Shown here in pieces: positions 1-47,645 of a DNA stretch of 64,000 nucleotides. Each line of letters starts with the position of its first letter. The stretch's first letter is position 1. Source of the DNA: Candidatus Heimdallarchaeum aukensis (GTDB lineage Archaea > Asgardarchaeota > Heimdallarchaeia > Heimdallarchaeales > Heimdallarchaeaceae); the NCBI GenBank assembly GCA_021513695.1, contig CP084166.1, positions 2,016,001 to 2,080,000 on the forward strand, in the 5' to 3' direction. The position numbers and the translations under genes are program-made. The notes beneath the pieces are model-generated. The model was not told the origin of the DNA. It saw only the letters and a list, made by a program, of their open reading frames with translations, and made no database searches.

Positions 1-628
1 ATTTAGTAAAGCTATTGAAGCTGTAAAAGAAAAATCGCCCAAAAGAAAGTTCGTTGAATCGATTGATATGGCTATAAATCTTAAGGATGTAAATCTCAAA
101 GATCCATCTAAGAGGTTTCAGATAGATGTTATTCTTCCCCACGAGATAGAAAAAGAAATAAAAATCTGTCTCTTTGGTGAAGGTTCTCATCTAATTGAAG
201 CACAGCAACTCAAAATATCTAAAGTAATTGATAGAAAAGAGTTGGAAAACATATCTCGTGATCCTAAGTTAGCAAAGAAGATTGCACAGAGTTATGATTT
301 CTTCATTTCCAGCGCACAACTTATGCCTGTTATCGGTAAAACATTAGGGCGATATTTAGGGCCTAGAGGAAAAATGCCTAGACCCGTCCCGCCAACCGAA
401 CAACTAGAACCCCTAGTGAAAAACTATAGTCGAACCGTTAAATTACGTTTAAGGCAAAATCCTGTCGTACATTCACGAATTGGAACAATGAACATGGATA
501 CACAATACTTAGCAGAAAATGCAATGGCTGTACTTCGTGCTGTAGAGGGAAAACTCGAAAGAGGCGCAAGTAACATAAAATCAATTTATCTTAAATCGAC
601 TATGGGTCCTTCAGTAAAAGTAGAATAG
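1..628 (+). CDS. rpl1: 50S ribosomal protein L1 (5' end lies outside the window)
   Basis: The reading frame is open from position 2. The translation (FSKAIEAVKEKSPKRKFVESIDMAINLKDV...GPRGKMP...) matches the L1 family. The gene sits immediately upstream of L10/P0 and L12/P1, as in archaeal L1-L10-L12 operons. Confidence 0.9.
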   Translation, partial: FSKAIEAVKEKSPKRKFVESIDMAINLKDVNLKDPSKRFQIDVILPHEIEKEIKICLFGEGSHLIEAQQLKISKVIDRKELENISRDPKLAKKIAQSYDFFISSAQLMPVIGKTLGRYLGPRGKMPRPVPPTEQLEPLVKNYSRTVKLRLRQNPVVHSRIGTMNMDTQYLAENAMAVLRAVEGKLERGASNIKSIYLKSTMGPSVKVE

Positions 629-637
629 GTGACATAA

Positions 638-1654
638 ATGTCGTCAGTAAGAATTTCAGAAGCAAAAATACAAACAGTAGAGAAACTCAAATCAGAATTG
701 CTTTCCTATCCTATTATCGGTCTCGTAAAAATTGAGAACATTAATGCACGTGTAGTACAGAAGATGAGATCAGAACTTAGAAAAGAAGCTAAAATAGTAA
801 TGGCAAAGAACAATTTAATGAAACTAGCAATAGATCAAGTGAAAGATAAAGTAAAGGGGATAGAACAACTAAAAGAATACATTAAAGGACCTTGTGCATT
901 TTTATTAACAAAAACTAATCCTTTCAAACTAGCAACATACATGAACACAAACAAAGTTCCTGCCCCAGCAAAACCAGGACAAATAGCTTCAAATGATATA
1001 GTTGTTCCTGCAATGAATACAGGTATCCCTCCAGGACCCGTAATATCTGAATTGCAATCACTCGGACTGAAAACTAGAATTGAAGGAGGACAGATAAAAA
1101 TAGCTGAACCCTCCGTCGTTACAAAAGAAGGAGAAAAAGTAACTCGTTCTGTTGCTTTATTACTACGAAGATTGAACATTGAGCCTTTCTTCGTGGGATT
1201 AAGCATGACAGTAGCTCTACAAGATGGAACACTATTACACGGAAAAGATTTGATAGTAGACTATGAACAATATCTCAATAACTTACAATATGCCCATAGC
1301 AGAGCTTTGAACTTAGCAGTTAATGCAGGAATCGTAACAAAAAGAAGCTTACCTATTTTGATACAAAAAGTCTATCAACAAGCAATAAACTTGACTGTTA
1401 ATGCTGGAATAGCAACAACACGCACATTACCTATGTTACTCGCAAAAGTAAGAAGCCAAGCATTAGCGTTGACTAGAATAATAGGTGAAATAGATAGTAA
1501 TGCTGTTTCTGCTAAAGCGCTAGAAGCAGCAAAAACGGCTTCGGTGGCACAAAAAACCACTGTAAGCACGGACAATAAACAAAAACAAGAAGAAAAAGAA
1601 GAAGAGCCAGAAGAAGAGGAAGAAGACCTCGGATTAGGCGCACTATTTGGATAG
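638..1654 (+). CDS. rplP0: 50S ribosomal protein L10 / acidic stalk protein P0
   Basis: 338 aa. The N-terminus is P0-like. The C-terminus has an acidic [18 protein letters not shown] stalk motif identical to that of the downstream P1/L12 gene. Confidence 0.92.
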   Translation: MSSVRISEAKIQTVEKLKSELLSYPIIGLVKIENINARVVQKMRSELRKEAKIVMAKNNLMKLAIDQVKDKVKGIEQLKEYIKGPCAFLLTKTNPFKLATYMNTNKVPAPAKPGQIASNDIVVPAMNTGIPPGPVISELQSLGLKTRIEGGQIKIAEPSVVTKEGEKVTRSVALLLRRLNIEPFFVGLSMTVALQDGTLLHGKDLIVDYEQYLNNLQYAHSRALNLAVNAGIVTKRSLPILIQKVYQQAINLTVNAGIATTRTLPMLLAKVRSQALALTRIIGEIDSNAVSAKALEAAKTASVAQKTTVSTDNKQKQEEKEEEPEEEEEDLGLGALFG

Positions 1655-1664
1655 GTGAAAAAAA

Positions 1665-1967
1665 ATGGAATATGTATATGCAGCAATGATCCTACATGAA
1701 TTAGGAAAAGAAATAAATGAACAAGCAGTAAAAAAGGTTCTTGAAGCAGCAGGAGCTTCAGTAGATGAGTCAAGAGTAAAAGCTCTAGTAGCAGCTCTTG
1801 AAGAAGTAGACATCGAACAAGCTCTAGAAACAGCAGTAATGGCTGCTGCAGCTCCTTCAGCTCCAGCTTCAGCAGGTGGTGCAGAAGAAAAAGCTGAAGA
1901 GAAAAAAGAAGAACCTGAAGAAGAGGAAGAAGAAGAAGATCTAGGTCTTGGAGCTTTATTCGGATAA
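1665..1967 (+). CDS. rpl12: 50S ribosomal protein L12 / P1 stalk protein
   Basis: 100 aa. [30 protein letters not shown] with an Ala-rich hinge and a C-terminal [15 protein letters not shown] motif typical of archaeal P1. Confidence 0.93.
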
Positions 1968-2186: not shown

Positions 2187-2260
2187 GCGGGGTTAGCAGA
2201 GTAGTTATGCGGCGGTCTGCAAAACCGTGGACAGGAGTGCAAATCTCCTACCCCGCTCCA
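2187..2260 (+). tRNA. tRNA-Cys (anticodon GCA)
   Basis: Cloverleaf read by hand. Acceptor stem GCGGGGT/ACCCCGC (7 bp). Anticodon stem GCGGT/ACCGT with loop CTGCAAA. T-arm AGGAG-TGCAAAT-CTCCT. Discriminator T followed by an encoded CCA. The overlapping ORF 2171..2386 is spurious. Confidence 0.75.
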
Positions 2261-2438
2261 ATAAGAGAAGAAAAAAACTTTTTTGAAAAATATTATTGCG
2301 TCAAAAGTTATGCTACTAATAACAGTCTAAACTTAAAAAAAGAATGTTTAGAAAATCAGAAAGTAAGAACATTCAGAGTACAGTAATATCGTAGGAAAAA
2401 CAATACTTAAATTAAGTTAGACGAAAGAGCAAACAATT

Positions 2439-3326
2439 ATGGTTTTTGTAATCTTTGTAGCTGGTTTACTAGAACATGATTCAGGAAAAACTACTCTATC
2501 TAAAGAGATAATCAAACACTTTAAGGACGAAGAAAATATAATAGTACAACCTTTCAAACCTTTAAGTGGGAATAATTTATATTATAACTTCAAAGAAATA
2601 AGAAAAAATTTTGATAAATACAAAGAGATACTATCACTAGATATAATAGAACTAGTAGAACAAGCAGAGACTAAAGTAGAAAATCCAACAATTAATAACC
2701 CAGTTCATAAATTAAATACGCCAGCAATACCTTACGAATTCATAAAGGAAGGAGTGACTCAAACTTATTATAATAGATTTACAGAAAGTGTGGCGTTAAT
2801 ACAAAGATTTACAATTATAGAAGAAGAGAATAAAAGCAAAAATTACTATATAATAAATAATCAAAGCTATAAAAATGCAAAGTTCTTTAATGAAGAAGAG
2901 ATAATAGAAGAATTAAGAAAAAAGGCAGAGAAAATAAACACATACTCAAATGAAGAAGAGTATATAGCTCTAAATATGGATTATTATGCTAAAGCAACAG
3001 AATCAACATTTAATTATTTTGAAAAAAAAGAAAAAATAATACTAATTGAGGGGTTTAACAACTCAGCTCATCCAGCGTGGTGCGTGAGAAAAGCAAATAT
3101 AGTAATATTAGTAGGACCAGGAACAATAATAACATACGAACCAGAAAAATACTTTACAGCAATAGATAATTATAGAATGATAAATAGAGAAAAATTAACA
3201 ATAACAAGTGATATAGTAAAACTACAAAAACCTGATGCAATGTTTAGATTTTCACTAAATAAGGAAGATCTGGATAAAAAAATAAAAAAGTTAATTGAGG
3301 AAATAAACAAAAAAAAGATAAAATAA
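2439..3326 (+). CDS. hypothetical protein with a deviant P-loop-like N-terminus (VAGLLEHDSGKTT)
   Basis: 295-aa ORF, Lys/Glu-rich. The N-terminus resembles dethiobiotin-synthetase or CobQ-type nucleotide-binding loops, but the resemblance is not conclusive. Confidence 0.45.
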   Translation: MVFVIFVAGLLEHDSGKTTLSKEIIKHFKDEENIIVQPFKPLSGNNLYYNFKEIRKNFDKYKEILSLDIIELVEQAETKVENPTINNPVHKLNTPAIPYEFIKEGVTQTYYNRFTESVALIQRFTIIEEENKSKNYYIINNQSYKNAKFFNEEEIIEELRKKAEKINTYSNEEEYIALNMDYYAKATESTFNYFEKKEKIILIEGFNNSAHPAWCVRKANIVILVGPGTIITYEPEKYFTAIDNYRMINREKLTITSDIVKLQKPDAMFRFSLNKEDLDKKIKKLIEEINKKKIK

Positions 3327-3497
3327 ATTGAGAATAAGATAAAATTAATTTAAAACAAAAACAAAGTAAAATTCTAGATATGCTGATTCGTTAATTCTCT
3401 TTTTTAAATTGCTAGAGAAATATATTAGGCAAAAATCCGATCTCATACAGCATTTAAAAGTTGGAAAAGTCTTAATTTGAAATAAGAAAAATGCAAG

Positions 3498-3605
3498 TGG
3501 TGCACGCGCCGGGATTTGAACCCGGGTTCCGTCAGTTCCACAACTACTTTCATACAGAAAGCAGCTTGGCAGTGACGAGTCCTAGCCAAACTAGACTACG
3601 CGAGC
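3498..3605 (-). tRNA. tRNA-Gly (anticodon GCC) with an intron of about 31 nt at or next to the anticodon loop
   Basis: Minus-strand read: GCTCGCG TA GTCT AGTTTGGCTA GGAC T CGTCA CTGCCAA [intron] TGACG GAAC CCGGG TTCAAAT CCCGG CGCGTGC A CCA. There is one T-T mismatch at acceptor pair 3-70. Confidence 0.7.
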
Positions 3606-3763
3606 ATAAATTATTTTTAACTAATTTCTGATTAATGCTTTTTCCTTCTTAATTAAATTTTTCGCTTATTGTTATGCTTTTCTTGATGTTGTAAATTCAA
3701 CGAAAATGGTTTAATAACTTTCCAAAAGATCTATTTTTTTTGAGATAATGAATGTAATTTAAC

Positions 3764-4684
3764 TTACTGTTCTTGTTTAACCCTTATTTTTTTCCAAACA
3801 ATTTCTTCATTTTTGGGCATTGTTTTATTTTGTACAAAGAATTCATCTATATATTCACACATTCTACACGTTTTGTTACAATAGTTCTTGTCTTTAATTC
3901 TAGGTGATAATTGTTCTTCAGATTTTAGTTTCTCAACAAAGGATATAATACTACTAATCCTTTTTAATTCTATATCCTCCTTAGGTATATCTAATATTAT
4001 TCTTTTCTTTTCATCATTGTTATTTAAGTACCACAGTTCAGGAGTAATTTCGATATTAGGTTTCTTTTTTCTAATAATTTCTGAGTAGGTTAACACTTGC
4101 CTTTTATCTCTTGGTGATTTTTTTCCTGTTTTTAGTTCTATCACTCTTATTGCTGTTCGATCTACTGTCCAAGCTAATATGTCTATTCTGCCTGTTAAAA
4201 GAAATTTTTCTGATAATTCATACTCAATTTTGTATTCAGTTCCGATAACAAGAGAAATTAATCTTCCTTTATTATTCTCTTCAACTAAAGTAGAACAAAG
4301 CATAGCCAAAGAGCGTAAATTAAAATAAAGCTCATCGTCAAACTTTACTTCTTTTTCTCTTTCAATTATACAATCAAAGTCCTTTTCTCCATCAGGAAAG
4401 AAAAATCTTTCTGTCAACTCATATAAAGCGGTAAAAAAAGATTCTTTGACGGATAGTTTTTCGTGTATGTAAAAATGTTGTACTAAGTCGAAATTGTTTG
4501 ATAAAACAGATTGTAGAAGTAGATGGTAAAAAGTTCCTAGCTCCATAGATCTTGAAGAAGAAGCATACTCTCTCAATTTATTCATTTTAAGTAGAACTTC
4601 AATATACGGTCTTATTGTACAAAAATCATCTTCAAGAACATCAGTAACGCTAATACTAACATGTTTTTGGAACATGACATTCAC
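3764..4684 (-). CDS. Cas4-like / RecB-family PD-(D/E)xK nuclease with a 4-Cys Fe-S cluster signature (solo, no CRISPR array)
   Basis: 306 aa. Motifs GRIDILAWTVD (D), VIELKTGKK (ExK) and RQVLTYSEI (QxxxY). One N-terminal Cys (DDFCTIRPY) and a C-terminal CNKTCRMCEY (CX3CX2C) cluster, as in Cas4/DUF83 nucleases. Confidence 0.6.
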   Translation of the reverse strand: MNVMFQKHVSISVTDVLEDDFCTIRPYIEVLLKMNKLREYASSSRSMELGTFYHLLLQSVLSNNFDLVQHFYIHEKLSVKESFFTALYELTERFFFPDGEKDFDCIIEREKEVKFDDELYFNLRSLAMLCSTLVEENNKGRLISLVIGTEYKIEYELSEKFLLTGRIDILAWTVDRTAIRVIELKTGKKSPRDKRQVLTYSEIIRKKKPNIEITPELWYLNNNDEKKRIILDIPKEDIELKRISSIISFVEKLKSEEQLSPRIKDKNYCNKTCRMCEYIDEFFVQNKTMPKNEEIVWKKIRVKQEQ

Positions 4685-4764
4685 GCTAATCTTTAATCTT
4701 TTAATAAATTTATAAAAAAGAAAAAAACATAGTCAAAAATAACACATCTTATTTTTTTATTATT

Positions 4765-6219
4765 ATGTTTATATATCGAAAAGTTATTTTTGAATTTGAA
4801 ATGGCTTCAAGAACACATATTCAAGAATATGAATCATGTATTGTTTTCCAGAAATTTATGATCGAAGAAAACATACTTGTTAATTTCTGTAAACATATCG
4901 ATTTTGGCATAGATGGTGAGCTGGATATATTACAAGAAGAGCCAAGGGATGATTTTTACGAAGAACGTAGAGCAATAGATATAGATTTAAGGAAAAAGGC
5001 TTTTGTTCAACTCAAATCTAAAAGAGAAAAAAGTAGGGTAAATGAAGATGGAACTGTTTCATATAGCTTTAAAAAACGACATTTAAAACTATGGCAAAAT
5101 TCGCCCATACCCGTTTTTGTTTTTTTGGTTTACCTTGATGACTCAAAAGAGATCTATTGGACATATGTTGATATTGACTTACAAATAGAAGAAGGGGAAT
5201 CGGAATGCCAAAACCTTACTCTTGAAAAACTAGAGAGGGGATGTAGAAATAAATTCAATAAGATAATTGAGGAGCATTATAAAAAAACAGGATACAAATA
5301 TAATGTCTCAACAAAATTACCAATGTTTAGAGATTTTATTGAAAGGAGAAAGCAAGGTTTAGAACTAAGAAAAAGTTTGATTTTCAAGGAATTAAATCCA
5401 ATAGAAGATAAAAAGGCTAAAATGTTAAGTCCTTTTCCTAAATCAGGATTGAGAAGCAAAACCAGCTACTCAGGATATGCCTTATCTATAGATGATTTCT
5501 ATGAAAAAATAGATGACGATGAATACATTAATGAGCTTTTTAGCCGTAAATCAAGGATAGAAAGCAATATTATTGAGAGTGTATATAAAGCAGAAGTAGC
5601 AAAGATAAAATATGATCTTGTAAATAATCACGAAACATTTTTTGATGATAGTTGGATTGAAATATTTGAAAATATAACAAAAATAACAGAGGAATATACA
5701 AGACCTATTTTGTTTATTAATAGTGAACTAAGAGATATTATTCGAGGGATTCCTGCAGCAGATAGACCTAGTCTAGTAAATCAAGTTCTTCATAATTCAA
5801 AAGAAGATGCAATATCACATTCTCATTATGAAAACATAATAAATGGAAAAAATGTTTATTTCTATTTCTTTTATATTCCTAGACACTTAAGTAAAAAGTT
5901 TCCTGTGTTAAACGATATTAAAATAATTATCTTAGATAGAGAAAAGGTAAAATATATTGTTAAAGAGCCATTAAGATTAGAATGGAGGACGATTACTAGG
6001 CCAGTTCAAGTTGATATTATCGATGGCGCAGCATATAAAGTTACAAAAAAAGAAGAAGAGTGGGATTGGTTTGACTTTACTTGTTATACTATAGGAGAAA
6101 TAAGAAATGAAGGACCAATAAAAATATACAAATTTTCCGAAGATGAGAAAAAGGAATTACAAGACTTTGAAGATAGACTAATAAAACTTACAAAATCAAG
6201 AAAGATTACCAAGGAATAA
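4765..6219 (+). CDS. hypothetical protein with an N-terminal restriction-endonuclease-like signature (HIDFGIDGELDILQE ... QLKSK)
   Basis: 484 aa. Divergently transcribed from the Cas4-like gene with an 80-bp gap. From memory, the N-terminal pattern (D-GIDG-E ... QxK ... PVFVFLVYLD) resembles the DUF4365 family. This could not be verified without a search. Confidence 0.4.
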   Translation: MFIYRKVIFEFEMASRTHIQEYESCIVFQKFMIEENILVNFCKHIDFGIDGELDILQEEPRDDFYEERRAIDIDLRKKAFVQLKSKREKSRVNEDGTVSYSFKKRHLKLWQNSPIPVFVFLVYLDDSKEIYWTYVDIDLQIEEGESECQNLTLEKLERGCRNKFNKIIEEHYKKTGYKYNVSTKLPMFRDFIERRKQGLELRKSLIFKELNPIEDKKAKMLSPFPKSGLRSKTSYSGYALSIDDFYEKIDDDEYINELFSRKSRIESNIIESVYKAEVAKIKYDLVNNHETFFDDSWIEIFENITKITEEYTRPILFINSELRDIIRGIPAADRPSLVNQVLHNSKEDAISHSHYENIINGKNVYFYFFYIPRHLSKKFPVLNDIKIIILDREKVKYIVKEPLRLEWRTITRPVQVDIIDGAAYKVTKKEEEWDWFDFTCYTIGEIRNEGPIKIYKFSEDEKKELQDFEDRLIKLTKSRKITKE

Positions 6220-6240
6220 TCACGTTTATTTTTTATTTAC

Positions 6241-6540
6241 TTATTCGTCTATTATTTTTTGTATTTCTTGTATAAATTCTGCTACTTTAGTTCCTTTTTC
6301 TGTTAGGCTAAAAACACGTTTATTGTAAGGAGGTAGGTATTCCTCTTCTATGAGTTCAAGGACGAGAAGTTTGTTAAGTGAAGTATAAACAGATGTTTGT
6401 GCTATACCAGGTATATTATCTATCAGTTGTGTGATCATTGCTTTTTTTTCAGATAATAGGTATAACAGTATCCTAAGAGCTCCTTTTTGTTCAAGTAAAG
6501 AAAGGGAACCTTCTCGTTCTCTCATTCTTCGGTATCCCAT
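6241..6540 (-). CDS. winged-helix transcriptional regulator (PadR/ArsR-like)
   Basis: 99 aa. ALRILLYLLSEKKAMITQLIDNIPGIAQTSVYTSLNKLLVLELIEEE is a typical HTH plus wing. It lies in the divergent promoter region with the downstream Rep/Par-like pair. Confidence 0.6.
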   Translation of the reverse strand: MGYRRMREREGSLSLLEQKGALRILLYLLSEKKAMITQLIDNIPGIAQTSVYTSLNKLLVLELIEEEYLPPYNKRVFSLTEKGTKVAEFIQEIQKIIDE

Positions 6541-6986
6541 ACCCTTAAACTGTCTAAGAGCTAAAAAATATTCTTATACAATTAATGTATGCATATATAC
6601 GAATGTTTTATATATGAGTAAACCAAATAATACGTAGGGGTTAAGCGACAGAATAAAAATAGAAATGAACCTAAGGAGCGATGAAAAAAGAATGATGGGT
6701 CAAAGATATGAGAAGAAAAGAAGAAAAAAACGTATATACGCCTTCTTCTGTAGTCTGTTCCGTACATAAATATATAGGGGACAAAGAGTTAGGTGTTTTG
6801 TGGATAAGTATTCAACTAGAGGGTGTAAAGCCTGATTTTTATAGTTTTGTTAGTAGAACATTTATAGGAAAAAAGTTTCTTTTATTTTTTTCTGCGTTTA
6901 TAAATTATTTTTATGATAAATATTGTAAACAACAAACCAAGAGGAGGAAAGAGAAGGACTTCTTCACTTCAAAAAAGTGAAACCGT

Positions 6987-8180
6987 GTGGTGGAGTTTAT
7001 GACTGTAAGTGAAAGGGGAAAGGATAAGTTTTTTTCAAATATCTATTATGATTTTAAAGGGGAAAAAAATAGAACCTTAGCAGATATAATTCCGTTTGAG
7101 TTTGAAGCAGTAATACAAGAGGAACATCTGATTGCTATTCAAGATATTAGAATAAAGGCAGGAATAAAATATCATCTACATATTAAAAGTTTGGAGACAG
7201 ATCAAAAATTACAAGGAGTAGACCTTTTAATTAGAAAACGTGGAGAGAAGATAGTTTTTACTTTGTCGCATCGAATGAAAAAACTGTTCAAAAAAGGAGA
7301 AAAAGTAAAGGTCAGTATCTTTTGTCCAACAGAAGATTTTTACGGTTTTTACGGAAGAAAACAAAAAGAAGGAATAAGAGATGTATCCATCCACAACGAT
7401 GAGATCTTGTGTATAGCTTTTATCTATCAAATGGGAGAAAATAAAAGGCTAATCAGTCTCAATAGCGAAAATGAAGAGTATTTGTCAAAATTAGAAGGAA
7501 TACAAGAGACTTTTCGTATCTTGGATGATAGAATAATAAGGAGAGATGAGGAAGGAAATGTCCCCTTTGAAGCTAAAAGTTACTCTAATTATGCAATAGT
7601 AAGATACTACACGATAATGAACAGGTATGATTTCATAAAGAATCAAGAAAATCACTCTTCTGTTTATACTTACTTCGTAGGAGATGAAAAAATCCTTCCT
7701 ACAGTAACATCCGTCAAAGCTTGTTTAGTGATAGTAATAAACAAGTCCTTGATTCCTATATGTCTAGAAGAGAGAGTAAGAAAAGAAATAAACATGTTTC
7801 TGGACAAAAAAATGCCTTTATTTAAAATACAAGACCAACTTTATGAATTAAAAAGAGTAATTTTGCAATGTATTAGAGCGTATTATAGACCTCCAGTAGC
7901 AGAAGAGACATATAACGAGTTCAACATTAAATCAATGCTTTTTCATTTAAACCGTCCAACTTCTCCTGTATACAAAGCAATTATATCCCTCATTTCTTTT
8001 GACAACTACATCTCAGTGGAAAAACTGGTAAAATATGTAGAAAAGAGGTATAAAATAAAAGATAGACGTTACATCAGTGAATCGTTAACAGAACTGATAA
8101 ATCTTGGAATTATAAAAAGAAAGGTTGAGGACGGAAAAGTAGGGGTAGGGGTTGTGAGGTCATATGATGAAAAAAGATGA
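6987..8180 (+). CDS. hypothetical protein with a C-terminal winged-helix-like region; candidate partner (centromere-binding or Rep-like) of the downstream ParA/MinD ATPase
   Basis: 397 aa. Overlaps the ParA-like gene by 17 nt, which indicates an operon. The C-terminus (ISVEKLVKYVEKRYKIKDRRYISESLTELINLGIIKRK) looks like a wH domain. There is no Walker A motif. Confidence 0.35.
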   Translation: MVEFMTVSERGKDKFFSNIYYDFKGEKNRTLADIIPFEFEAVIQEEHLIAIQDIRIKAGIKYHLHIKSLETDQKLQGVDLLIRKRGEKIVFTLSHRMKKLFKKGEKVKVSIFCPTEDFYGFYGRKQKEGIRDVSIHNDEILCIAFIYQMGENKRLISLNSENEEYLSKLEGIQETFRILDDRIIRRDEEGNVPFEAKSYSNYAIVRYYTIMNRYDFIKNQENHSSVYTYFVGDEKILPTVTSVKACLVIVINKSLIPICLEERVRKEINMFLDKKMPLFKIQDQLYELKRVILQCIRAYYRPPVAEETYNEFNIKSMLFHLNRPTSPVYKAIISLISFDNYISVEKLVKYVEKRYKIKDRRYISESLTELINLGIIKRKVEDGKVGVGVVRSYDEKR

Positions 8181-8964
8181 ACAAGGAAAAGTAGTGAGTT
8201 TTTTCAGTTTTTCAGGAGGAGTAGGTAAAACGACTTTAGTTGTTAACATCGCCAAAATATTAGCAGAACAAGGGAAGAAAACAATAGTGCTAGAACTAGA
8301 ATTACTTTCACCTAAATACCAAACTATTTTTGGGTTTAATCCTGCGAAATCTATAGATGAATTATATATGCAAGATTATAGAAACATCCTTGAACTAGAA
8401 ACGATTGATAGAATAATTAAGAAAAGTATAATTACAAACGATTATGGAGTAGATTTCATTATCCCTACTGCTCCAGCAACAATAGAAGATCTAATTAACA
8501 GAGATAGAGACTATCATCATAAAGATTTTGCAAACTTTATAAGAAATTTACTAGCTTATCTGCGGAAGAAATACGAAATAGTGTTGATAGACTCTCCAAG
8601 TATAACGAACACCGAAATAATGAGTGTTTTACTGCTATCAGATAAATTAGTTTATGTCTGTATTCCCCCTTTGGGAGATATATCTAAAGGAATAGAAAAA
8701 ATAAAAAAATTTCCAGAGAGTACATTCATCGATCCGATTGATGTGATAATAAATAAAGTACCAGTAGAAACAGAGAAAGAGAGACAAATATTGGAAAGAA
8801 AAATGAAAGAACAACTAAAGAAAGAACAAATAAACAAAGTAAGAGTAGTAGAATTATCACTAGATTATATAAAAGAGAATGTAAAAGAAAGGAGAATATA
8901 CATAGAAAAAGAAAAGGAAAAAAACATGTACCAAACACTGCTAAACTACAGTAAAGAATTATGA
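8164..8964 (+). CDS. ParA/MinD-family (SIMIBI) ATPase
   Basis: 266 aa. Deviant Walker A FSFSGGVGKTTLVVN and Walker B EIVLIDSPS. Confidence 0.75.
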   Translation: MMKKDEQGKVVSFFSFSGGVGKTTLVVNIAKILAEQGKKTIVLELELLSPKYQTIFGFNPAKSIDELYMQDYRNILELETIDRIIKKSIITNDYGVDFIIPTAPATIEDLINRDRDYHHKDFANFIRNLLAYLRKKYEIVLIDSPSITNTEIMSVLLLSDKLVYVCIPPLGDISKGIEKIKKFPESTFIDPIDVIINKVPVETEKERQILERKMKEQLKKEQINKVRVVELSLDYIKENVKERRIYIEKEKEKNMYQTLLNYSKEL

Positions 8965-8995
8965 TATCAAATTTAAAAGAAAAGAAAAATAAAGT

Positions 8996-9047
8996 CTATC
9001 ACTATCCCTATCTCTAAAACTATCACTATCACTATCATTATCACTAT
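8996..9047. repeat. (CTATCA)n hexanucleotide repeat tract
   Basis: ctatcactatccctatctctaaaactatcactatcactatcattatcactatt. Its reverse complement shares 19-20 identical bases (gatagtgatagtgatagtt) with the tract at 54963..55011. Confidence 0.75.
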
Positions 9048-9131
9048 TATTTTCATTTGAACTAGCAAAAAATAAACAAAACAAAACGAAAAGGGAAAAA
9101 AACACAAAAGAATGGAGATAAGAGAAAGAGA

Positions 9132-10514
9132 CTATCTTCTATTTTTTAAAAAACGGAGGAGATTTTTAAGGGAGAAAAGAGAAACAAAGGATAAGGGAGT
9201 AATTACGATTATTAAATACATCATCTGATTCTTAACTAAGGGATTGGTATGATTGTAAAATTCTTCAAGATTAGTTAGACCGTCCCCGTCAAAATCAAGA
9301 TAAGAGTCATTAGTCAAAGGGTCAGAACCATAATGAACTTCCCAACCGTCAGGTAAAAGGTCTCCATCAGTGTCGCTAGACCAAGGATCAGTACCATAAA
9401 CATGATCTTCAAGATAATCCAGAAGGTTATCTCCATCGAAATCGCTCCCACGAGGAAAAGGGTCAAAAGCTTTAGCCGCGCCATCGATAGGGTAAGGTTC
9501 AGAGCCATCAGTATCTGACCAATAGTTGCCAATAGAATAGACGGGGTCAAACCAAGTGTTATTTATCCCATCATCAAAAGCTTGAGAAAGGTTCTTACCT
9601 TGATTGTTCTTGAAAAAAACATTACGAGAGATAAAGTTGTTAGAAGCAGATTTGTAAATATATAGTCCATACTCGCTGTTATTAAAAAAAACATTAGAAG
9701 AAAGGTGATTGTTAGAACCACTTACGGACAAACCACTTCTTCTGCTCTCGGAAATAACGTTATCGGTCACAGTGTTATTATCCCCACCTATTGCTAACCC
9801 ATCATAATTGGTATAAATAATGGTATTATTTGATATGAAGTTATTATGTCCTGAACTAAGAATTCCCCGTTCTCCACTATACAACAAGTAGTTATTAGTA
9901 ATAACGTTAAAACAAGTGTCGGTCATATCAATGCCACTTGCCCATCTAGTGTAAGAAATGTTATTACCGCTAACCAAGTTGTGAGAACCGTAGTGGATAT
10001 CTATTGCCTCCTCGGTGTGAGTGATAAAATTGTTAATAATGACATTATCAGAACTATGTAATGTTATCAATTCGCGTGAATAAGTTTTATTGGTCCCACC
10101 AATAAGAGTGGAGCCTTCAAGATGAAGATGGGCATTATCCCGTGCTCCAATATTCCAAGGACTGTCGGTGTAAGTTAGGATAGTAGTATCATAGATCGCT
10201 AAAGAAGAATTATCATAGGCATAAATACTTAGAGAACCTACTCGATCATGTTCAATAACAATAAAACAGTTACGAAGAATAAGAGAGCCTTCGTCCTTGA
10301 CATCAACTCTGTTGGTAAGTTTAATAAACTCGTTCTCAACTACAGTAGGTTCGGTAATGTTCCAAATACCATCAGGGGGAGGAAAAGAGCCAGAGCTAGA
10401 TGCTGAAGAAGTAACTATCGGACTAAAAGTAGGTGAAAATAACATAATAGAAGAAAAAATCATAAACACAAGTACAAACGAATTCTTTTTCCTTTTTTTT
10501 AGAATAAATATCAT
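9132..10514 (-). CDS. secreted right-handed beta-helix (PbH1/NosD-like) protein with C-terminal thrombospondin-type-3/dockerin-like Ca-binding repeats and a C-terminal hydrophobic anchor
   Basis: 460 aa. N-terminal signal/TM segment. Repeated NNxIxxN / GxxxxGSNN beta-helix rungs. DFDGDNLLD...DTDGDLLPDGWE...DFDGDGLTNLEE repeats of the DxDxDG type. C-terminal TM segment followed by a basic tail. Confidence 0.7.
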   Translation of the reverse strand: MIFILKKRKKNSFVLVFMIFSSIMLFSPTFSPIVTSSASSSGSFPPPDGIWNITEPTVVENEFIKLTNRVDVKDEGSLILRNCFIVIEHDRVGSLSIYAYDNSSLAIYDTTILTYTDSPWNIGARDNAHLHLEGSTLIGGTNKTYSRELITLHSSDNVIINNFITHTEEAIDIHYGSHNLVSGNNISYTRWASGIDMTDTCFNVITNNYLLYSGERGILSSGHNNFISNNTIIYTNYDGLAIGGDNNTVTDNVISESRRSGLSVSGSNNHLSSNVFFNNSEYGLYIYKSASNNFISRNVFFKNNQGKNLSQAFDDGINNTWFDPVYSIGNYWSDTDGSEPYPIDGAAKAFDPFPRGSDFDGDNLLDYLEDHVYGTDPWSSDTDGDLLPDGWEVHYGSDPLTNDSYLDFDGDGLTNLEEFYNHTNPLVKNQMMYLIIVITPLSFVSLFSLKNLLRFLKNRR

Positions 10515-10652
10515 GAATAAATAGACCTTTTTTTATTAATAAATTTTTGTAAATTATTGCTTTACCAGTCATTTAATGTTATAAAACAGTAAATTAAAGT
10601 CACATTATAAAAGAAATAAATGAATTAAGAATAGTAAATTGGTACCTATAAA

Positions 10653-10710
10653 AAACGTCTATAAAAACTATCGACACTTTTGAGAAACGTCTATAAAAAC
10701 TATCGACACT
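10653..10710. repeat. tandem direct repeat, 2 x 26 bp (aaacgtctataaaaactatcgacact) with 32-bp period, containing a TATA-box-like core
   Basis: Copies at 10653..10678 and 10685..10710 are identical. They lie in the 780-bp intergenic region between the beta-helix gene and the giant operon. Confidence 0.8.
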
Positions 10711-11293
10711 AACTCAATTTCTAGCAAAAAATATCTCTTAAAATTATTTATAAAGTGGTAAAAAATTCTCCTGAGTTTAAATACTACCAATAGCTATATA
10801 TATCAGTAATTGACCAAAAAGAAAAAACTTCACACGATACTAAAAAATGTATTTTTATTTAATTAAAAGGCTGAAGAATAAGAAGTGGGATATATATACA
10901 CTGTTAGATAAAAACAACTTACGGGTTATAAAATTAAAGACGAAATAAAGAAAAAGAGAAAAATTTACAGGTATTTATAAATACCATATTGATTTAAATA
11001 AAAAAAGAGATAGTCACATTTTATGAGTCAATATAGTAAGAAATTGGTCAACCCCAAGTACCCAAACACTACTATGTTGACTCATAAATCCTTGAAAAAA
11101 TCAAAGTCAAGGATAACCCAGAAAGAAAAAATTGACTCATGTTGCTTTTTAGCAAACTTTTTTTCAATGACAGATCTGGGTGAAAAAAGGAAAGTGAAGA
11201 TTTTTTCACTTTCCACACTCTCCTTTAAGTTTATTTTCAAGCATAATAGTGCTTCTTTTTGTTCTCTTTCAAAAAAAATAAAGGTGGATAAGA

Positions 11294-14200
11294 ATGGAGA
11301 AAATAAAGATAAAGAAAAAATTAACAATTTATTCAATTTTAATAATATTAATATTCTCTAATTTAAGTGGATTGAATTTTAAATTTTTGCAAGCAGAAAA
11401 TGGAGATCAAAGTCCTCCATCTATACTCAGAGTAACACAGTTTCCTGAAGTTCCTACCCAATTCGATGGAGTGGTAGTCTATGTAGAAGTGGAAGACGAA
11501 ACAGGGTTCAGTTCTATATATTTGATGTACGAAAGGAATAATAACTTAACATCCATACCAATGAAGTATTTACCCAATTATTATGGGAATGGAACATGTT
11601 TTTACGCTTCTCTTCCTTCTTTTTCTGCAGGAACTAAAATAACTTATTTTATCGAAGTGACTGATTCGAGTGAGAATCAGAATATTGCACACTCACTAAA
11701 ATATGATTATGTGGTGGTGAGTGACGGAATACCAAAAATACAGTTATTAAACGAACCAAAATTTCTGTATTTAGGAGATGAATATAAATTCCAGTTTACA
11801 ATTTATGATGAGGATAATATTTCTCTTCAAGATACAGGGATTGATCCACCTTTATTATATTACAGAACAGAAAGAGTAGAAGGAACACAACAAGTAGTTT
11901 ATAATTCCACAACAGGGGTATTTGAAAGCGTTTTACCTTCTGTGAATCTACTAGATGGAGAAATGAGTGAAGGAGAAAATATAGAGGTGTGGGTAGGAGC
12001 TTATGATAAAAGTCCTGCACACCAGTATGGGGAGAGCAAACATTTGCAGTTACCTGTCATTAACGAGAAACCTTACATTTATGGCGTAGATAGGTATCCA
12101 TATATTCCTTTGTATAATGAAAGTTTCAATTTAACCACAACAATCTATTATAGAGAAAATATAGGTATGAATATCACGCAAGTATCAGCAACTATAAACC
12201 GATATGATGAGGTTACACAAAAAATTACAAAACAAAGTTATATTTTAACCCAAAGTGAATATTCAAAATTTGTATTTACAGGAATAATAGAATCGATTGG
12301 GTATATAGACAATATAGAATTGAAAATAAATTGTAAGTACACTTCAGATTACCAAATAGAAGAAGCAGAAGTAGAAAAACAAGAAAAAAGTTTTAGAGTA
12401 AGAGATTGCGAAGCGCCAACAATATTAGAAAGTGGATTTAGCAACGGGGTATCAACATTAAAAGAAGGAGAAGAAGTAAAAATCTATGCTAATGTACTTG
12501 ATCGTTTGAATACAAAAGATGTCACTGCAATAATTACTGAAGAGTATAAATCAGGATTGCAACTTATTCGTTCATCAAAGGAATATTTCCAGAAAATGGG
12601 TTATTATGGAGATGACGGGATAAGTTTTATTCAACAGATGAGTATTGATCAGAGTATAAGTGGAGATTTTTATTTTGATGGATTAGTTCTAAAAGAAGAA
12701 TATGTTAGTGCAGTGAGAAAAGAAGCAGCAAGTGAAACATTAGTTATTTACGCGGTAGAAGGAAAAAATGAATTATTTATCAAGATTATCAACCCAGAAG
12801 GGTTTGTTCCTTTAAGTTATAATCAGTTGGTTATACAAGCAAAAGCTATAGGACAAGATATTCTTTTAGCAGGAGTATACACTGATTTAGGAGAAACAGT
12901 TGTTTGGAATGAAACAGTAGGAGAGTATGTTTACGATAATGTACTGCCTATAGACAAGGTTTTTACTATAGATGAATACGGAACAGCTTGTTTATACAAT
13001 CTTCAAAATATGGACGATATTACAAATGCGATATGGATAAAATTCGTTCCTGCTGAAGGAGGAAATTTTAGTTCATCTGATGGTTTAAGTATTGATAATA
13101 TTAGATTGTTTAGTATAAATACTTTAAATGGCGAGAGAATAGACTCTTATCATCAAGAAATAAATCATGATTTTGTTGAATACTATGGCTATTATCAAGC
13201 TAAAAAGGTTGATCAATTAATAACTTTCTATATCCAAGCGAGCGACGGAATAAATATCCAAACCCAAAATAATGAGGAAACAATAATAGTAACTGATGGT
13301 AGACCTCCAACATTTGCCATCAAACAAATTTCTGGAGTGGATATAGGTGATATTGAAATCAACTTTAGCATGGCTATCACTGATTATTCTATAATAGATC
13401 CAACTGATGCAGTAAATGTTCGTTTTCATTACAAGATTAACGGATTAGAAGAAATAAGTGCGAACTTAACAGTTGAGAATAACTGGGACGATAAAGGAAA
13501 AGTGTGGGTGTATAGGCTTGACACTACAACAAATTTAAATTTCAACGATATGTGGAAATATTGGTTCAGTGCAGAAGATCCTTGTGGTAATCGTGGAGAA
13601 AGTAAACATTACTCTTTTGTTGTAGAAGAAAATAGTGCACCTACAATATCTTTAACTTGTCAGACCGTTACATATAATGGAGAAGAAAAAACAGTTGTTG
13701 ATCCTGCAGGGGCAGAAATAGGAATATCTGGAGAATATTTAGACATAAACATGGATATAACAGAGAATGAAGGAGGAAGTGGAATAAAACTTATCCAGCT
13801 ATATTGGTATACTTCTTCTCATGAATCAAATTGCTGGAGTTCGGAAGTATATAGTTTTATGTCTAGCTATTCTATCACTAATTTAACTGTAGCAGAAAAA
13901 ATGATACATAATTTCGATAAAGTAGGTATACTTTATTATTATGCACAAGTAATTGATCATGCAGGAAACATTTATCAAACACCAGAATATCAAGTACAGC
14001 TAATAGATAATGTAAATCCTATAATAAAAATCAACTCTGAATATAATAGTCCAAATGGGTTGTATAATGTCGACAATTCGTATGGTGATATAAGCTATAA
14101 TGAAGATGCATATATCACTTTAGAAATAGAAGATGCATCTACTATAACTAACCTAATTTTGGAGGCAGAAACATCTCAAGGTACCTTTGTAGGAGAAGTG

Positions 14201-17200
14201 GTATGGGACGAATATTATCATGATTGGACATTACAACATTATCAGATTAAAATAAATAAAGCGTGGGAAGTAGGAGAAAATATCAATCTAAAGATTACAG
14301 CGGTAGATTCTTTTGGAAATGCACTAAATAATATTTTTTTGGGTACAGAATACATTGTAGACAAACTTCCTCCTGTTTTACTCTCCTATTCGGATAATAA
14401 TTATGAACTGGGGGGAGGAGAAATAACTATTTCTTATCAAGTTAAGGATATAGGAAGTGTTGTAGCTTACCTTTATTATAATTTCAATTCTTCAGTGGAA
14501 ACACCCTCAACTGAAAATGCTACTCTTTCAGATTTTCAAGTAGCTGTAATGGATCTTGAATCAATAGATAATACGAAATATGCTCCTTATACTGAATGGT
14601 CATTTACCAAAACATTATCTCTGCCATCGGGAATATTATATCCTGCGGTATCAATATATTTTGTAGCATTAGATGAATATAATAACAGTTTAACATGTAT
14701 TGGAGGAAAAGCATATTCCCTACCTAATTTTGATATAGAAACAAGTATTTATACTCCTCGTATTGAATCATATAAAAAACTTGCTGATAAATTTGGAGAT
14801 TTTAGAGAATACCCCAGAGATAACGTAGATAAAAGATGGGTGGGAGAAACAGAAACAACTATAATTTCCTATGATTTTAGTGTAGAAGAAAATTTTTCTA
14901 TAAACTACGCTCATCCTTATGGAGATAGATTTGCAAAAAGTGTAGTAGATTTTTACACTCATTATTGTGAAAATAGTTTCTATGCTCTTGGAGCACCAGA
15001 TGGAAACATGGCAGAAGTTACTGGAAGTATACGTTTAGACATGGGGCATGAAGGAATAATAGTAAGTAAGCCTGGAGATGGAGCAGATTTCACAGTTTAT
15101 GGAGGGTCAGGACAATATCAAGTATTAGTATTTAACTCGTGGTTTCCTATGGAAGAATATCATTATCTAGGAACAGGAACGGGTATAACTTCTTGGGACT
15201 TAGAAGATGAAGGGTTAGATAAAGCACGATATGTAGAAATATGGAGTGAAACCGTAGAGGATGACATTCCAGTATATATTGATGCAATAGAAGCAATACA
15301 TTGTGATGGAGATAGTTTCACTGCTCAAGAATGGCAGAATGCAGAAGAAAATAATGGAATTCCAGCAAATATAGAAGATAAGCAACTTTCAATGTATTAC
15401 CATGGATATAATGAAAATAATGAAATATTAGAAATCACAGCCAATCCTGAATTTTATGACTACTTATATTTACCCCTATGGATGAATACTTATCTCCCTC
15501 AAATAAAACTGTCAATCAATTTTGTACAGCAACCTTATTCTGTTGATCTTTTTGCGGTAGATAATATGGCAAGAGATACTCTGATGCAAAATGGAAGTTA
15601 TGTGCATCTAGGAAAAATAGATGGCTCAGGAGTGTATTATTTTGCATGTTCATACCCTAATAGATACACAGGTGTGTTGTTTAAAATAAGACATAACTGG
15701 GCAAGAATAACGAGCGAACTTGTGCAAATGTACAATTATGAATTTACGCTTGATTATATTAAATTATTTGGCATTTTTTATAGAATAGAAGAATTATCAG
15801 GACCAAATTATTTGGAATTCGAAAAAATGTATGAAAAAAATAGCGGGAGAAATCCTGACCCTCTATTTTTGCAAATGGAAAATTATAATGGTGAAAATCA
15901 GAAAAGTGCAAGTATAGGTAATATCACAGAGGAAATATGGTATGATGCAATTAATGAATTGGAAGTTTTTTATGGTACAAAGGGAGAATGGTTTTATCTT
16001 GCAATTGATAGAGCAAGTGAGAAACCTAATAATTCCATTGTTACAGATGTTCAAATTGTTTATGTAGACGGAGAAAGATTATATTGGAAGAGTGCATACA
16101 ATAACCAAAAAAGAATAGCTTTAATTTTTGACACTTTAGAATTCTATGAAACTTATGGAGTGAGTAATTACTTTTACATTATGTCGAATGCAACGATTGA
16201 TGGAGATGGATTTACAGCTTATTATTATTCTTTTTATTCTAATAATGAATTGTTACAAGGGTTCAACTATGAAGGGATACCTCAGGCAGATTTCAGGACA
16301 GGTGATGCACTTAACCCCACTCTTGAAGATACAAGTTACGATTCTCCATGGTGGAATAACCCATTAGATTTTACCTCTCTCCATTCAGATAAACACGGGT
16401 GTATAGTCGTACAAATCCAAGAAAATCAATCTGGTAATCTTGATCATCTAAATTTTGAAGGATATTACTCCTTCTTGTTGGATGATCTCTATCTTGGTGG
16501 AGAAGAATTACATGAAAATAGAATCGGTTATCTCCCTATACATATAGAAGGATTTAGCTACTATAATGGAATAATGAACGGTTTTTATATTACTGACGAT
16601 ATTCACCCCAAACTAAGATTACAGACATCTATCGAGAATCTTTATTCTCATCCCTTAGAATTAAAGTATGTTCTTCCTGTCGCATTTATTGATTATGGAG
16701 AAGGGTGGTTACCCAGAGAAATAGAAAATTATGATAATAGCTACTTAGCTAATGAAAGATATAGATGGATTGAGGTAGAATTTCACAATAAGATTCAATA
16801 TGATATTACAGAACTAAATAATGATTCATGCACGCTTTGGCAGAAAGTGTTTGACTCTCAATCAAATGAGATTTATTTTGAAGAGAGCTATACTCATTAT
16901 AAGAGTAAAAATGTAGATAATGAATTTACTAAAAGTTTCTCCCACATAATCCCTGAATCAGAAGCTATTTTTCCAAGTTCTTATCAGTACTTTACTTATA
17001 GAGCAAGTTTAAACTATGTAGGAAGTATTTCTTCTTCCGATTACATACAAGTTGATTCACCAGAGTTTAGAATAGGAAATACAAAAAAAGAAGATTCAAA
17101 TATCAATGAACAATATGAAAGAGCGAAAGATGGAAACAGATTCTATTATTTCCTTCCATATGAGAGTGATACAAATTCTATTGCATTTGTGAATATCTCA

Positions 17201-40641: not shown

Positions 40642-40664
40642 AAATAGTAAATAAAGAAAAAAAC

Positions 40665-40768
40665 TGGTGCGTCAACCGGGAATTGAACCCGGGCCGTCGA
40701 ATCTCTTCTTGAGGCTTCTAGACGCCATATAATGGAAGTCCGACGTACTACCACTATACTATTGACGC
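40665..40768 (-). tRNA. tRNA-Gly (anticodon TCC) with an intron of about 30 nt
   Basis: Minus-strand read: GCGTCAA TA GTAT AGTGGTA GTAC G TCGGA CTTCCAT [intron] TTCGA CGGC CCGGG TTCAATT CCCGG TTGACGC A CCA. Confidence 0.7.
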
Positions 40769-40984
40769 TTTCTTTGTTTTTTTCTTTCTATTCTTTTGAT
40801 TACCGATTTCTTTTTAACTTTTATGGATTTTGTCTTTTTCTTTTTTTTCTTCTTTCTCTTCTTTTTTTTATTTTTAATTTATGTTTCTCTTCTTTTTTTT
40901 ATTTGTTTAAAATCAATATATTTAAGTAACGTTGTTTTGTTTCTGACTTAAGATATACTAACATTATTTAGAGGAGAATATATT

Positions 40985-41482
40985 ATGAGTTCAGATACAG
41001 TTACTGTTGATCTTTTAGTAGATGGTGGTAAAGCTACCCCTGGTGGTGCTATGGGCCCTGCTCTTGGTCCTACTGGTGTTAATATCAAGCAAGTTGTCGA
41101 TGAAATTAACAAGCAAACTCAAGCTTATAAAGGTATGAAGGTTCCTGTTACTGTTACCGTTTTCAAGAAAACACGTGAGTTTACCCTTTCCGTTGGTATT
41201 CCTCCTGCTTCTGCTCTTATTTTAAAAGAAGCTGGTATTTCCAAGGGTTCTGGTACTCCTAATACTGAGGTTGTTGGTAATATTACTTTTCAACAGTTGA
41301 TCAATGCTGCTAAAGCTAAATGGCCTGATCTTACTGCTGCTACCCTTGCTGCTGCTTGTAAAGAGTTGCTTGGGACCATGGTTTGTATGGGTATTACTTG
41401 TGATGGTAAAGCTCCTCGTGTAGTTCAGAAGGAGATAGATGAAGGAGTATATGATGATATTCTCTCTGAGAATGAGGATTAA
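40985..41482 (+). CDS. rpl11: 50S ribosomal protein L11
   Basis: 165 aa. VDGGKATPGGAMGPALGPTGVNIKQVVDEIN and PPASALILKEAGI are hallmark L11 motifs. Strongly biased (T/C-ending) codon usage, typical of highly expressed genes. Confidence 0.93.
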   Translation: MSSDTVTVDLLVDGGKATPGGAMGPALGPTGVNIKQVVDEINKQTQAYKGMKVPVTVTVFKKTREFTLSVGIPPASALILKEAGISKGSGTPNTEVVGNITFQQLINAAKAKWPDLTAATLAAACKELLGTMVCMGITCDGKAPRVVQKEIDEGVYDDILSENED

Positions 41483-41558
41483 ATTTCGTTATAAACAAAG
41501 TTTATGAATGCTAGTAAAAAATTAAACATGAAGTATATTTAAAATAGAGGTATAGATA

Positions 41559-41753
41559 ATGAGCAAATTTATTAACAATACTCGTTCTTTCGTTATTCGT
41601 AGTAGACGTTTACTTCGTCATGCTAAAAAGCCTAGTCGTCGAGAGCTTTCCATGACTGCTAAAATTACTGCTTTAGGTATTATAGTCATTGGATTAATCG
41701 GTTGGGTTCTTCATCTTATGTTCAACGTTATACTTGACGCTATTAACAAATGA
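41559..41753 (+). CDS. secE: protein translocase subunit SecE / Sec61-gamma
   Basis: 64 aa. A basic N-terminus followed by a single TM helix (ITALGIIVIGLIGWVLHLMFNVIL). Located directly upstream of spt5, as in archaea. Confidence 0.75.
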   Translation: MSKFINNTRSFVIRSRRLLRHAKKPSRRELSMTAKITALGIIVIGLIGWVLHLMFNVILDAINK

Positions 41754-41799
41754 TATTATTCTTTCTTACGTTTTACTTAAACCTCGTGGAGATGAAATT

Positions 41800-42294: not shown

Positions 42295-42326
42295 ATAACT
42301 AATTATTTTTTGCCTATTTTTCTTTC

Positions 42327-44684: not shown

Positions 44685-44708
44685 TTTTACCGATACAATT
44701 TTCTATTT

Positions 44709-47549: not shown

Positions 47550-47645
47550 TTAAAATAAAGAATTTTAAATAAATTCTCTTCTTTTTTTGTTTTTTATTTA
47601 TAAAAGCAAATAAATTTTAAATAATACCATAAAAGTAGGAAAAAC

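Follow-up and report, generated by a model that had tools for sequence, protein, structure and literature searches.

We analysed a 64,000-nucleotide (nt) stretch of the genome of Candidatus Heimdallarchaeum aukensis (contig CP084166.1, positions 2,016,001 to 2,080,000; hereafter the window, whose numbering is used throughout), with emphasis on positions 2439-10514. A first-pass annotation, made from the letters alone, had described this part as an accessory island beside tRNA-Cys and tRNA-Gly genes and separate from an operon for giant proteins. All of the open reading frames (ORFs) that it listed are present at its coordinates, as is the tRNA-Cys gene. From left to right, they encode a P-loop protein, a Cas4-like nuclease, a protein with a DUF4365 domain, a small winged-helix regulator of the HxlR type, a short basic protein, a 397-aa protein, a ParA/MinD-like ATPase and a beta-helix protein (Table 1). 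Most of the proposed identities were borne out by domain searches: the nuclease with its D, ExK, QxxxY and four-cysteine motifs belongs to PDDEXK_1, the 484-aa protein carries a nuclease domain of the DUF4365 family, the regulator has an HxlR-type winged helix, and the last protein contains NosD/beta-helix domains and TSP3 repeats. Our analysis indicates that the region from ~3683 to 10514 is very probably the left, non-giant arm of Aloposon3, an integrated mobile element of ~37 kb (~3683-~40600), and forms one unit with the two giant genes to its right.

Aloposons were described in Ca. H. aukensis and Ca. H. endolithica by Wu et al. 2022 (Nat Microbiol; PMC8813620). Three features define them: a tandem of genes (Otus and Ephialtes) whose products measure 3,000-6,000 aa, a tRNA site on the downstream side of these giants, and four consecutive upstream genes, one of which encodes a MinD/ParA-like ATPase; Aloposon2 of H. 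endolithica and Aloposon3 of H. aukensis were reported as the same element at different tRNA sites (PMC8813620). Each of these features was found in the window. Two ORFs of 4223 and 5557 codons stand in tandem; a tRNA-Gly(UCC) gene, overlooked in the first-pass annotation, starts 27 nt after the stop codon of giant gene 2, in the geometry that tRNA-Asn shows downstream of the giants of Aloposon2; and the genes for the HxlR-type regulator, the 90-aa ORF, the 397-aa protein and the ParA-like ATPase make up the four-gene block at 6241-8964. Positions 3686-16211 are ~92-93% identical to a region at 2.35 Mb of the H. endolithica genome, which is Aloposon2. K9W45_09080 of Ca. H. aukensis matches the 397-aa protein with 100% identity, and the sister species Ca. 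H. endolithica has a protein with 98% identity to the DUF4365 protein. Since all the defining features are present, the stretch ~3683-10514 is the left arm of Aloposon3 and does not form an island of its own beside the giant-protein operon, contrary to what had been supposed. It is an already published element, from the same organism and with no difference in kind from the published aloposons, and it merges with the neighbouring giant-protein genes into a single Aloposon3.

We compared the window with five loci: Aloposon2 (L001), a metagenomic relative (L002), the orthologous H. endolithica site at 2.10 Mb (L005), the HeimV2 module (L006), which adjoins the 16S rRNA gene in H. endolithica, and a further H. 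endolithica module (L007). Homology with Aloposon2 begins at the left edge given in Table 1 and ends at ~40550, within the C-terminal part of giant gene 2, whose last 36 codons lie past that end. A short stretch just past the stop codon of the Cas4-like gene is also common to the L007 module and, in part, to HeimV2. Beyond ~3683 and ~40550, the flanks of the window and of Aloposon2 are unrelated. These limits of copy-to-copy homology place the mobile unit between ~3683 and a point from 40550 to 40667. To the left of Aloposon2 lies a gene for a 442-aa protein, a widespread bacterial-type enzyme (a contig search returned 80 loci, with neither Heimdallarchaeum genome among them); two outgroup loci showed no synteny.

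Employing BLASTN, we found that at the orthologous site L005 positions 2397-4919 of the window are joined straight to 40533-50004, and the intervening 35.6 kb (4920-40532) is gone. The P-loop gene, tRNA-Gly(GCC) and the Cas4-like gene are on the first of the two segments; tRNA-Gly(UCC) and the genes for L11, SecE and Spt5, together with further genes, are on the second. What remains of the DUF4365 gene at this site is 53 codons, degenerate and frame-shifted; of giant gene 2, the final ~108 nt are left. The junction lies within both ORFs, at an imperfect microhomology, ATAGA(T/A)G. Because remnants of both ORFs are retained, L005 is not a naive or empty site: the element was formerly present here in H. 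endolithica and its interior was later deleted. With an internally deleted copy at L005, the relation between Aloposon2 and Aloposon3 is not a simple move between tRNA sites.

Table 1. Features of the Aloposon3 region and its flanks in the window (positions counted from the first letter of the window).
Feature	Position	Strand	Evidence or remark
tRNA-Cys(GCA)	2187..2257	+	Host flank
P-loop protein, 295 aa	2439..3326	+	Host flank; weak, sub-threshold DUF1611_C/MobB-type similarity only
tRNA-Gly(GCC)	3501..3605	-	33-nt intron; Rfam RF00005, 45.9 bits
Left edge of repeated (mobile) unit	3683..3763		Aloposon2 (L001) homology starts at ~3683, 80 nt past the Cas4-like stop codon
Cas4-like PD-(D/E)xK Fe-S-type nuclease	3764..4684	-	PF12705 PDDEXK_1, E 2e-11
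Left deletion breakpoint (L005)	4919..4920		Inside DUF4365 codon ~53; BLASTN
DUF4365 protein, 484 aa	4765..6219	+	N-terminal DUF4365 (DREN/Mrr-like) nuclease, PF14280, E 5e-12
HxlR-type winged-helix regulator	6241..6540	-	E 2e-7; first gene of the block, divergent from the next three
Small basic ORF, 90 aa	6708..6980	+	Position kept in all modules; shared MR(R/K)KE N-terminus; sequence poorly conserved
397-aa protein (393 aa in the NCBI call, K9W45_09080)	6987..8180	+	Beta-rich N-terminal region, predicted C-terminal winged helix
ParA/MinD-like ATPase	8164..8964	+	AAA_31, E 2e-14; the 'MinD/ParA-like AAA ATPase' of the aloposon definition
NosD-type beta-helix protein with TSP3 repeats, membrane-anchored	9132..10514	-	Pfam domains
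32-bp tandem iteron, core AACGTCTATAAAAACTATCGAC	10644..10707	+	Candidate cis site (centromere or operator)
Conserved inverted repeats on ATGAGTCAAT / ATTGACTCAT	11020..11140		Upstream of giant gene 1
Giant gene 1, 4223 aa	11294..23965	+	One of the Otus/Ephialtes pair; hydrophobic N- and C-termini
Giant gene 2, 5557 aa	23968..40641	+	Hydrophobic N- and C-terminal segments
Right deletion breakpoint (L005)	40532/40533		Inside giant gene 2; BLASTN
tRNA-Gly(UCC), intron-containing	40668..40768	-	3' end abuts the right end of the element; Rfam

As judged from synteny, the P-loop gene and tRNA-Gly(GCC) (2439-3605), which fall within the range given for the island, are host flank and lie outside the element. 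The ortholog of the P-loop gene in H. endolithica is 94% identical and keeps the same placement with respect to tRNA-Gly(GCC) and the Cas4-like gene, with a ratio of nonsynonymous to synonymous substitution rates (dN/dS) of 0.22 between the two species; its product has no relative in the PDB. The tRNA-Gly gene itself is real, with the extent corrected to 3501-3605, on the minus strand and with an intron. It has one U-U mismatch in the acceptor stem, is identical in sequence in H. endolithica, and turns its 5' end towards the left edge of the element. Two intron-containing tRNA-Gly genes (GCC and UCC), both in the same orientation, flank the element on either side. Both of these, and a third intron-containing tRNA gene at 63608-63730(+), were found by Rfam and missed by ARAGORN.

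Some further features of the flanks were observed. The L11-L1-P0-P1 ribosomal protein cluster usual in archaea is split in H. aukensis: L1, P0 and P1 are encoded at the left end of the window (68-1967), and L11, SecE and Spt5 are encoded ~39 kb to the right (40985-42294) on the same strand, with tRNA genes, the P-loop gene and the aloposon in between. Directly after Spt5 lies a gene for a 785-aa protein of the Eco57I/N6-methylase type (42327-44684), 97% conserved in H. endolithica, which seems to be a restriction-modification-like gene that has become fixed among core genes. On the left side, synteny with H. endolithica ends at ~2397. There, at ~2.10 Mb of CP084167.1 (L005 12509-15534), a CRISPR array of ~47 repeats of ATTTCAATCCTATATTAGTCCAATTTTAAC with cas2, cas1, cas4, cas3 and cas5 takes the place of the tRNA-Cys and ribosomal protein genes of H. 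aukensis. The 46 spacers of this array gave only short chance matches to the aloposon.

The unit occupies different chromosomal sites in the two sister species, and several paralogous modules are present in one genome. At the ends of the element, no att-like direct repeats or terminal inverted repeats were found above the shuffled background, in agreement with the first-pass annotation, which had reported no flanking att repeat. Two A/T-rich inverted matches (4702-4739 and 40772-40846) are retained in L005 and were set aside as terminal repeats. No integrase, transposase or recombinase domain was detected in the scanned annotated ORFs of the element, a scan that left aside the small ORFs of the intergenic region upstream of the giants. 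As regards an integrase-type tRNA island or provirus, these searches revealed neither a tyrosine or serine recombinase gene nor att repeats copying the 3' end of a tRNA.

In base composition, the element resembles its host. The stretch 2439-10514 has a GC content of 30.4%, compared with 31.8% both for the window and for the element as a whole, so the earlier claim that it is the most AT-rich part of the window holds only weakly. Low values are confined to three genes, those for the P-loop protein (at 26.1% the most AT-rich of this region), the Cas4-like nuclease (29.0%) and the DUF4365 protein (28.9%), and a core gene at 48432-49178 is equally low (26.0%). GC content at third codon positions (GC3) does not distinguish element genes from core genes. 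Foreignness by composition was rejected on these grounds. Between element copies, dN/dS of the element genes ranges from 0.09 (the HxlR gene) to 0.56, which indicates that these genes are functional and under purifying selection. For the Cas4-like gene, dN/dS was 0.73 in comparison with its near-identical ortholog in the L005 remnant, at a dS of only 0.02.

Divergence among the copies is uneven. The DUF4365 gene is 98.5% identical in nucleotide sequence to that of Aloposon2 and 88.9% identical to that of L002; the 397-aa gene shows 99.6% identity to L002 and 96.2% to Aloposon2; and the beta-helix gene, with 85% nucleotide identity to Aloposon2, is the most divergent gene between element copies. 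This patchiness points to recombinational exchange of cassettes between copies of the element.

The similarity to the host in base composition and GC3, the lack of any integrase, transposase, att repeat or terminal inverted repeat in our searches, and the occurrence of the same gene order in three genomes or metagenomes would also be expected of ordinary, conserved, genus-specific chromosomal genes that form no mobile element. Such an explanation is contradicted by the different sites in the sister species, the paralogous modules, the deletion at the orthologous site and the mosaic copies; in addition, the Cas4-like and 397-aa families have no homologs outside Heimdallarchaeaceae. We regard it as extremely improbable. 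The first-pass annotation was right in treating the region as accessory or mobile DNA and not as core genes: the Cas4-like and 397-aa families are confined to Heimdallarchaeaceae, the copies of the Cas4-like gene are linked to modules, and 35.6 kb is missing from the site in H. endolithica.

The Cas4-like gene was present beside every aloposon-type module examined and represents a fifth recurrent gene. There are four copies of it in H. endolithica, each adjoining an aloposon-type module or a remnant. In HeimV2 the gene stands within the element, with the ParA gene on one side and the giants on the other; in Aloposon2 it lies at the left edge and has been interrupted by an rve-type insertion sequence (L001 8120-9132); a degraded copy is found beside the L007 module; and an intact one is kept in the deletion remnant at L005. 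The last is 96% identical in amino acid sequence to the window copy, and the Aloposon2 copy is 90% identical over the aligned part. Judged by where its copies lie, the gene is element-borne.

It has also to be considered that the Cas4-like gene belongs to a chromosomal family and serves as a landing pad beside which aloposons insert. At L005, the gene is intact and the rest of the element is gone, and at three loci the 5' side of a tRNA gene is ~150 nt away from it, as might be expected of a landing pad. However, the DUF4365 codons and the end of giant gene 2 kept at L005 mark an internally deleted element instead of an empty target, and in HeimV2 the gene is located inside the element. Moreover, the window copy is closer to its positional ortholog than to the Aloposon2 copy, as expected if each Cas4-like gene travels with its own copy of the element. 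We therefore consider the landing-pad explanation very doubtful and retain the view that the gene is part of the aloposon.

In an alignment of eight members of the family, E183-x-K185, Q196xxxY200, C22, C269 and C273 are invariant, and D168 and C276 are conserved in seven. The protein scored 39 bits against the Cas4 model TIGR00372, below the cutoff of 65 bits. No cas domains were found among the ORFs of 2439-10514; H. endolithica has a separate canonical Cas4 (PF01930, 170 aa) in the cas operon near L005. Sequence searches returned no relative in the PDB and none in IMG/VR, PLSDB or INPHARED. The protein shares the D...ExK...QxxxY motifs, the 1+3 cysteines, the location on a mobile element and the absence of adjoining cas1/cas2 with stand-alone Cas4-like nucleases of archaeal viruses, plasmids and casposons, but compared with canonical Cas4 it is ~100 residues longer, falls below the TIGR00372 cutoff and belongs to a family found only in Heimdallarchaeaceae. 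The link to viruses or plasmids that the first-pass annotation drew from a solo Cas4 gene was not sustained: neither the Cas4-like protein nor the 397-aa protein has relatives on known plasmids or IMG/VR contigs, and the Cas4-like protein has none among known phages.

More distant homologs of the Cas4-like protein (36-39% identity) are encoded in other Heimdallarchaeaceae by the last gene of a conserved six-gene operon (L088 3024-10915, L091 4312-10915). The proteins of this operon, of about 122, 263, 250, 236, 775 and 653 aa, have no Pfam match, and its neighbours are a type I restriction-modification system in one case and very large TSP3-repeat proteins in the other. The operon may represent an uncharacterised system.

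The DUF4365 gene is oriented divergently to the Cas4-like gene and is missing from HeimV2 and the L007 module; its product is a cargo specific to the Aloposon2/Aloposon3 lineage. In the NCBI call, the H. endolithica ortholog starts at the residue that matches codon 13 here (4801). Downstream of the nuclease domain, the protein has a C-terminal domain (aa ~160-484) that is rare: an exhaustive HMMER search with the C-terminal 325 residues yielded 8 cluster representatives among 1.84 billion. In some of these the shared domain is preceded by DUF4365, in others by an HNH nuclease of the CBASS/Shedu effector type. Exchange of nuclease heads on a common tail is a pattern of effector plus sensor, and we infer that the tail is a regulatory or sensor domain. 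The AlphaFold2 (AF2) model of the protein, with a predicted local distance difference test (pLDDT) score of 29, was not usable.

These properties raise the possibility that the divergent Cas4-like/DUF4365 pair, perhaps with the winged-helix regulator, is an anti-virus system located near tRNA genes and independent of the giants, that is, a defence island. PADLOC gave weak matches to Argonaute-associated nucleases (Aga_Cas4-like_Nuc, 3e-4; Aga_REase-PNTD1-PNTD2, 5e-8), the DUF4365 domain weakly resembles the SPARDA DREN-APAZ structure 9jsb (E 0.08), relatives carry the same C-terminal domain on an effector-type HNH nuclease, and the pair recurs on metagenomic contigs (one 2.1-kb contig carries it; another metagenome scan found nothing). 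However, the PADLOC matches span the nuclease domains only, no complete known system was recognised, and no prokaryotic Argonaute (pAgo), APAZ, cas1 or cas2 is encoded nearby. The Cas4-like gene occurs without the DUF4365 gene in HeimV2 and L007, so the pair is not an obligate unit, and both genes lie within the stretch common to Aloposon2 and Aloposon3. A defence island, one of the two possibilities named in the first-pass annotation, is unlikely.

A SPARDA/Argonaute system in particular was rejected. The PADLOC and PDB matches of the DUF4365 protein end at residue ~167, with no similarity to APAZ beyond, and no PIWI or MID domain was found among the neighbours. SPARDA DREN-APAZ and the DUF4365 protein are alike in their N-terminal DUF4365/DREN nuclease, their regulatory-looking C-terminal domain of ~300 aa and their size; they differ in that the latter has no APAZ and no nearby Argonaute gene, and its C-terminal domain is a separate rare family that is also found on HNH nucleases. 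Within Aloposon3, the DUF4365 protein would be an exchangeable cargo, a nuclease effector with a sensor-like C-terminal domain, for defence or addiction.

The block of genes for the HxlR-type regulator, the 90-aa ORF, a ~390-aa protein and the ParA-like ATPase is kept in Aloposon2, L002, HeimV2 and L007. The 397-aa protein had been annotated as an unknown winged-helix protein. It has no match in Pfam, NCBIfam, PADLOC or the PDB and no relatives in IMG/VR or PLSDB, and the winged helix is seen only in a low-confidence AF2 model (pLDDT 53), in which the C-terminal 60 residues retrieved DNA-binding winged-helix proteins with Foldseek. Longer Foldseek matches, to GATOR1/SEAC/FLCN chains at TM 0.2-0.25, were judged unreliable and left out of account. 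The last 17 nt of its gene overlap the ParA-like gene. The annotation of the latter as a ParA/MinD ATPase stands as far as the AAA_31 domain is concerned; the Walker A motif (SFSGGVGKTT here, SFEGGTGKTM in HeimV2 and L007) keeps GK[T], but the signature lysine of ParA/MinD is replaced. ParA/MinD family models scored below their cutoffs, and the closest solved relatives are archaeal MinD proteins.

Based on the gene order and the domain types, we propose that the block may be a maintenance cassette of the plasmid-partition type, in which the HxlR-type protein would act as a divergently transcribed autoregulator, the 397-aa protein as the DNA-binding adaptor of the ParA-like ATPase, and the iterons upstream of the giants as a candidate cis site. 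The archaeal segregation cassette of pNOB8 in Sulfolobus is reportedly arranged as aspA-parB-parA (Schumacher et al., 2015). The two cassettes are alike in being tricistronic, with genes for a small protein, a mid-sized DNA-binding adaptor (a putative one in the aloposon) and a Walker-type ATPase, the last two overlapping. They differ in that the 397-aa protein is unlike pNOB8 ParB or any PDB chain, the ParA-like protein is devoid of the signature lysine, and the element is integrated. For lack of sequence similarity, the 397-aa protein was rejected as a pNOB8 ParB.

The ParA-like ATPase and the 397-aa protein may instead position or assemble the giant surface proteins and not segregate DNA, in the way that protein cargo is positioned by other ATPases of the ParA/MinD family. 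The block is always linked to genes for giant or large surface proteins (including those in PMC8813620), the nearest solved structures are MinD and not plasmid ParA, the signature lysine is missing, and an integrated element has no obvious need for partitioning. On the other hand, the 397-aa partner is predicted to end in a winged helix of the DNA-binding type, the divergent winged-helix regulator and the nearby iterons fit a DNA-centred system, and in L007 the block has no adjacent giant genes. We judge a role in protein positioning to be improbable and continue with the partition-type cassette as the working proposal.

Upstream of the giants, the 780-bp intergenic region 10515-11293 is 94% conserved across three copies of the element, above several coding regions; the identity over the whole aligned stretch of the window and Aloposon2 is ~93%. 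No Rfam family was found in this region. The iteron, 1.7 kb from the ParA-like operon, is present in two copies here and in L002 and in three copies in Aloposon2. Neither giant protein has a Pfam-A match at E <= 1e-3; their hydrophobic terminal segments suggest surface anchoring. The beta-helix protein and the two giants would be surface-anchored cargo of the element. At its left edge, the Cas4-like Fe-S nuclease may process DNA ends during recombination-dependent replication, during integration or in exchange between copies, and could in this way serve the exchange of cassettes suggested by the mosaic copies.

Several points weigh against this interpretation of Aloposon3. The left boundary is set by the limit of copy-to-copy homology, and the mobile status is read from comparative positions, no recombinase having been identified; neither a circular nor an extrachromosomal form of the element was seen. 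The role of the Cas4-like nuclease is assigned by analogy, from what is known of its family. As for the cassette, type I partition ATPases have a deviant Walker A motif (KGGxGK[ST]) with the signature lysine, which the ParA-like protein does not show, and the 397-aa protein has no similarity to ParB, pNOB8 ParB, ribbon-helix-helix (RHH) proteins or any solved structure, its model being poor. The partition reading itself draws on the order of the genes and the types of their domains.

Very few integrated mobile elements of a non-viral kind have been reported from Asgard archaea. Aloposons belong to these, and in 2024 they were called the only ones reported until then (PMC11529989). The words 'Cas4', 'nuclease' and 'DUF4365' do not occur in the text of PMC8813620, and the supplementary files of Wu et al. 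contain no text on the gene content of aloposons. The recurrent Cas4-like gene, the internally deleted copy in the sister species, the DUF4365 cargo with its DUF4365/HNH domain-swap family, the variation in iteron copy number and the mosaicism are absent from the text of that paper and represent incremental additions, as does the lack of a recombinase and of terminal repeats.

A wider proposal can be formulated from these observations. Aloposons may move and persist without a transposase or integrase by means of the Cas4-like nuclease at their own edge and the ParA-like/winged-helix cassette, near tRNA genes, with exchange of cassettes driven by the same components; and the DUF4365 and HNH proteins that share the rare C-terminal domain may constitute a new family of single-protein nuclease-sensor defence. 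We think it unlikely that this holds; if true, aloposons would be a mechanistically new class of archaeal mobile element. The points added here narrow what needs to be explained, namely how aloposons move and persist, and offer the Cas4-like nuclease, the 397-aa protein and the iterons as targets for biochemistry.

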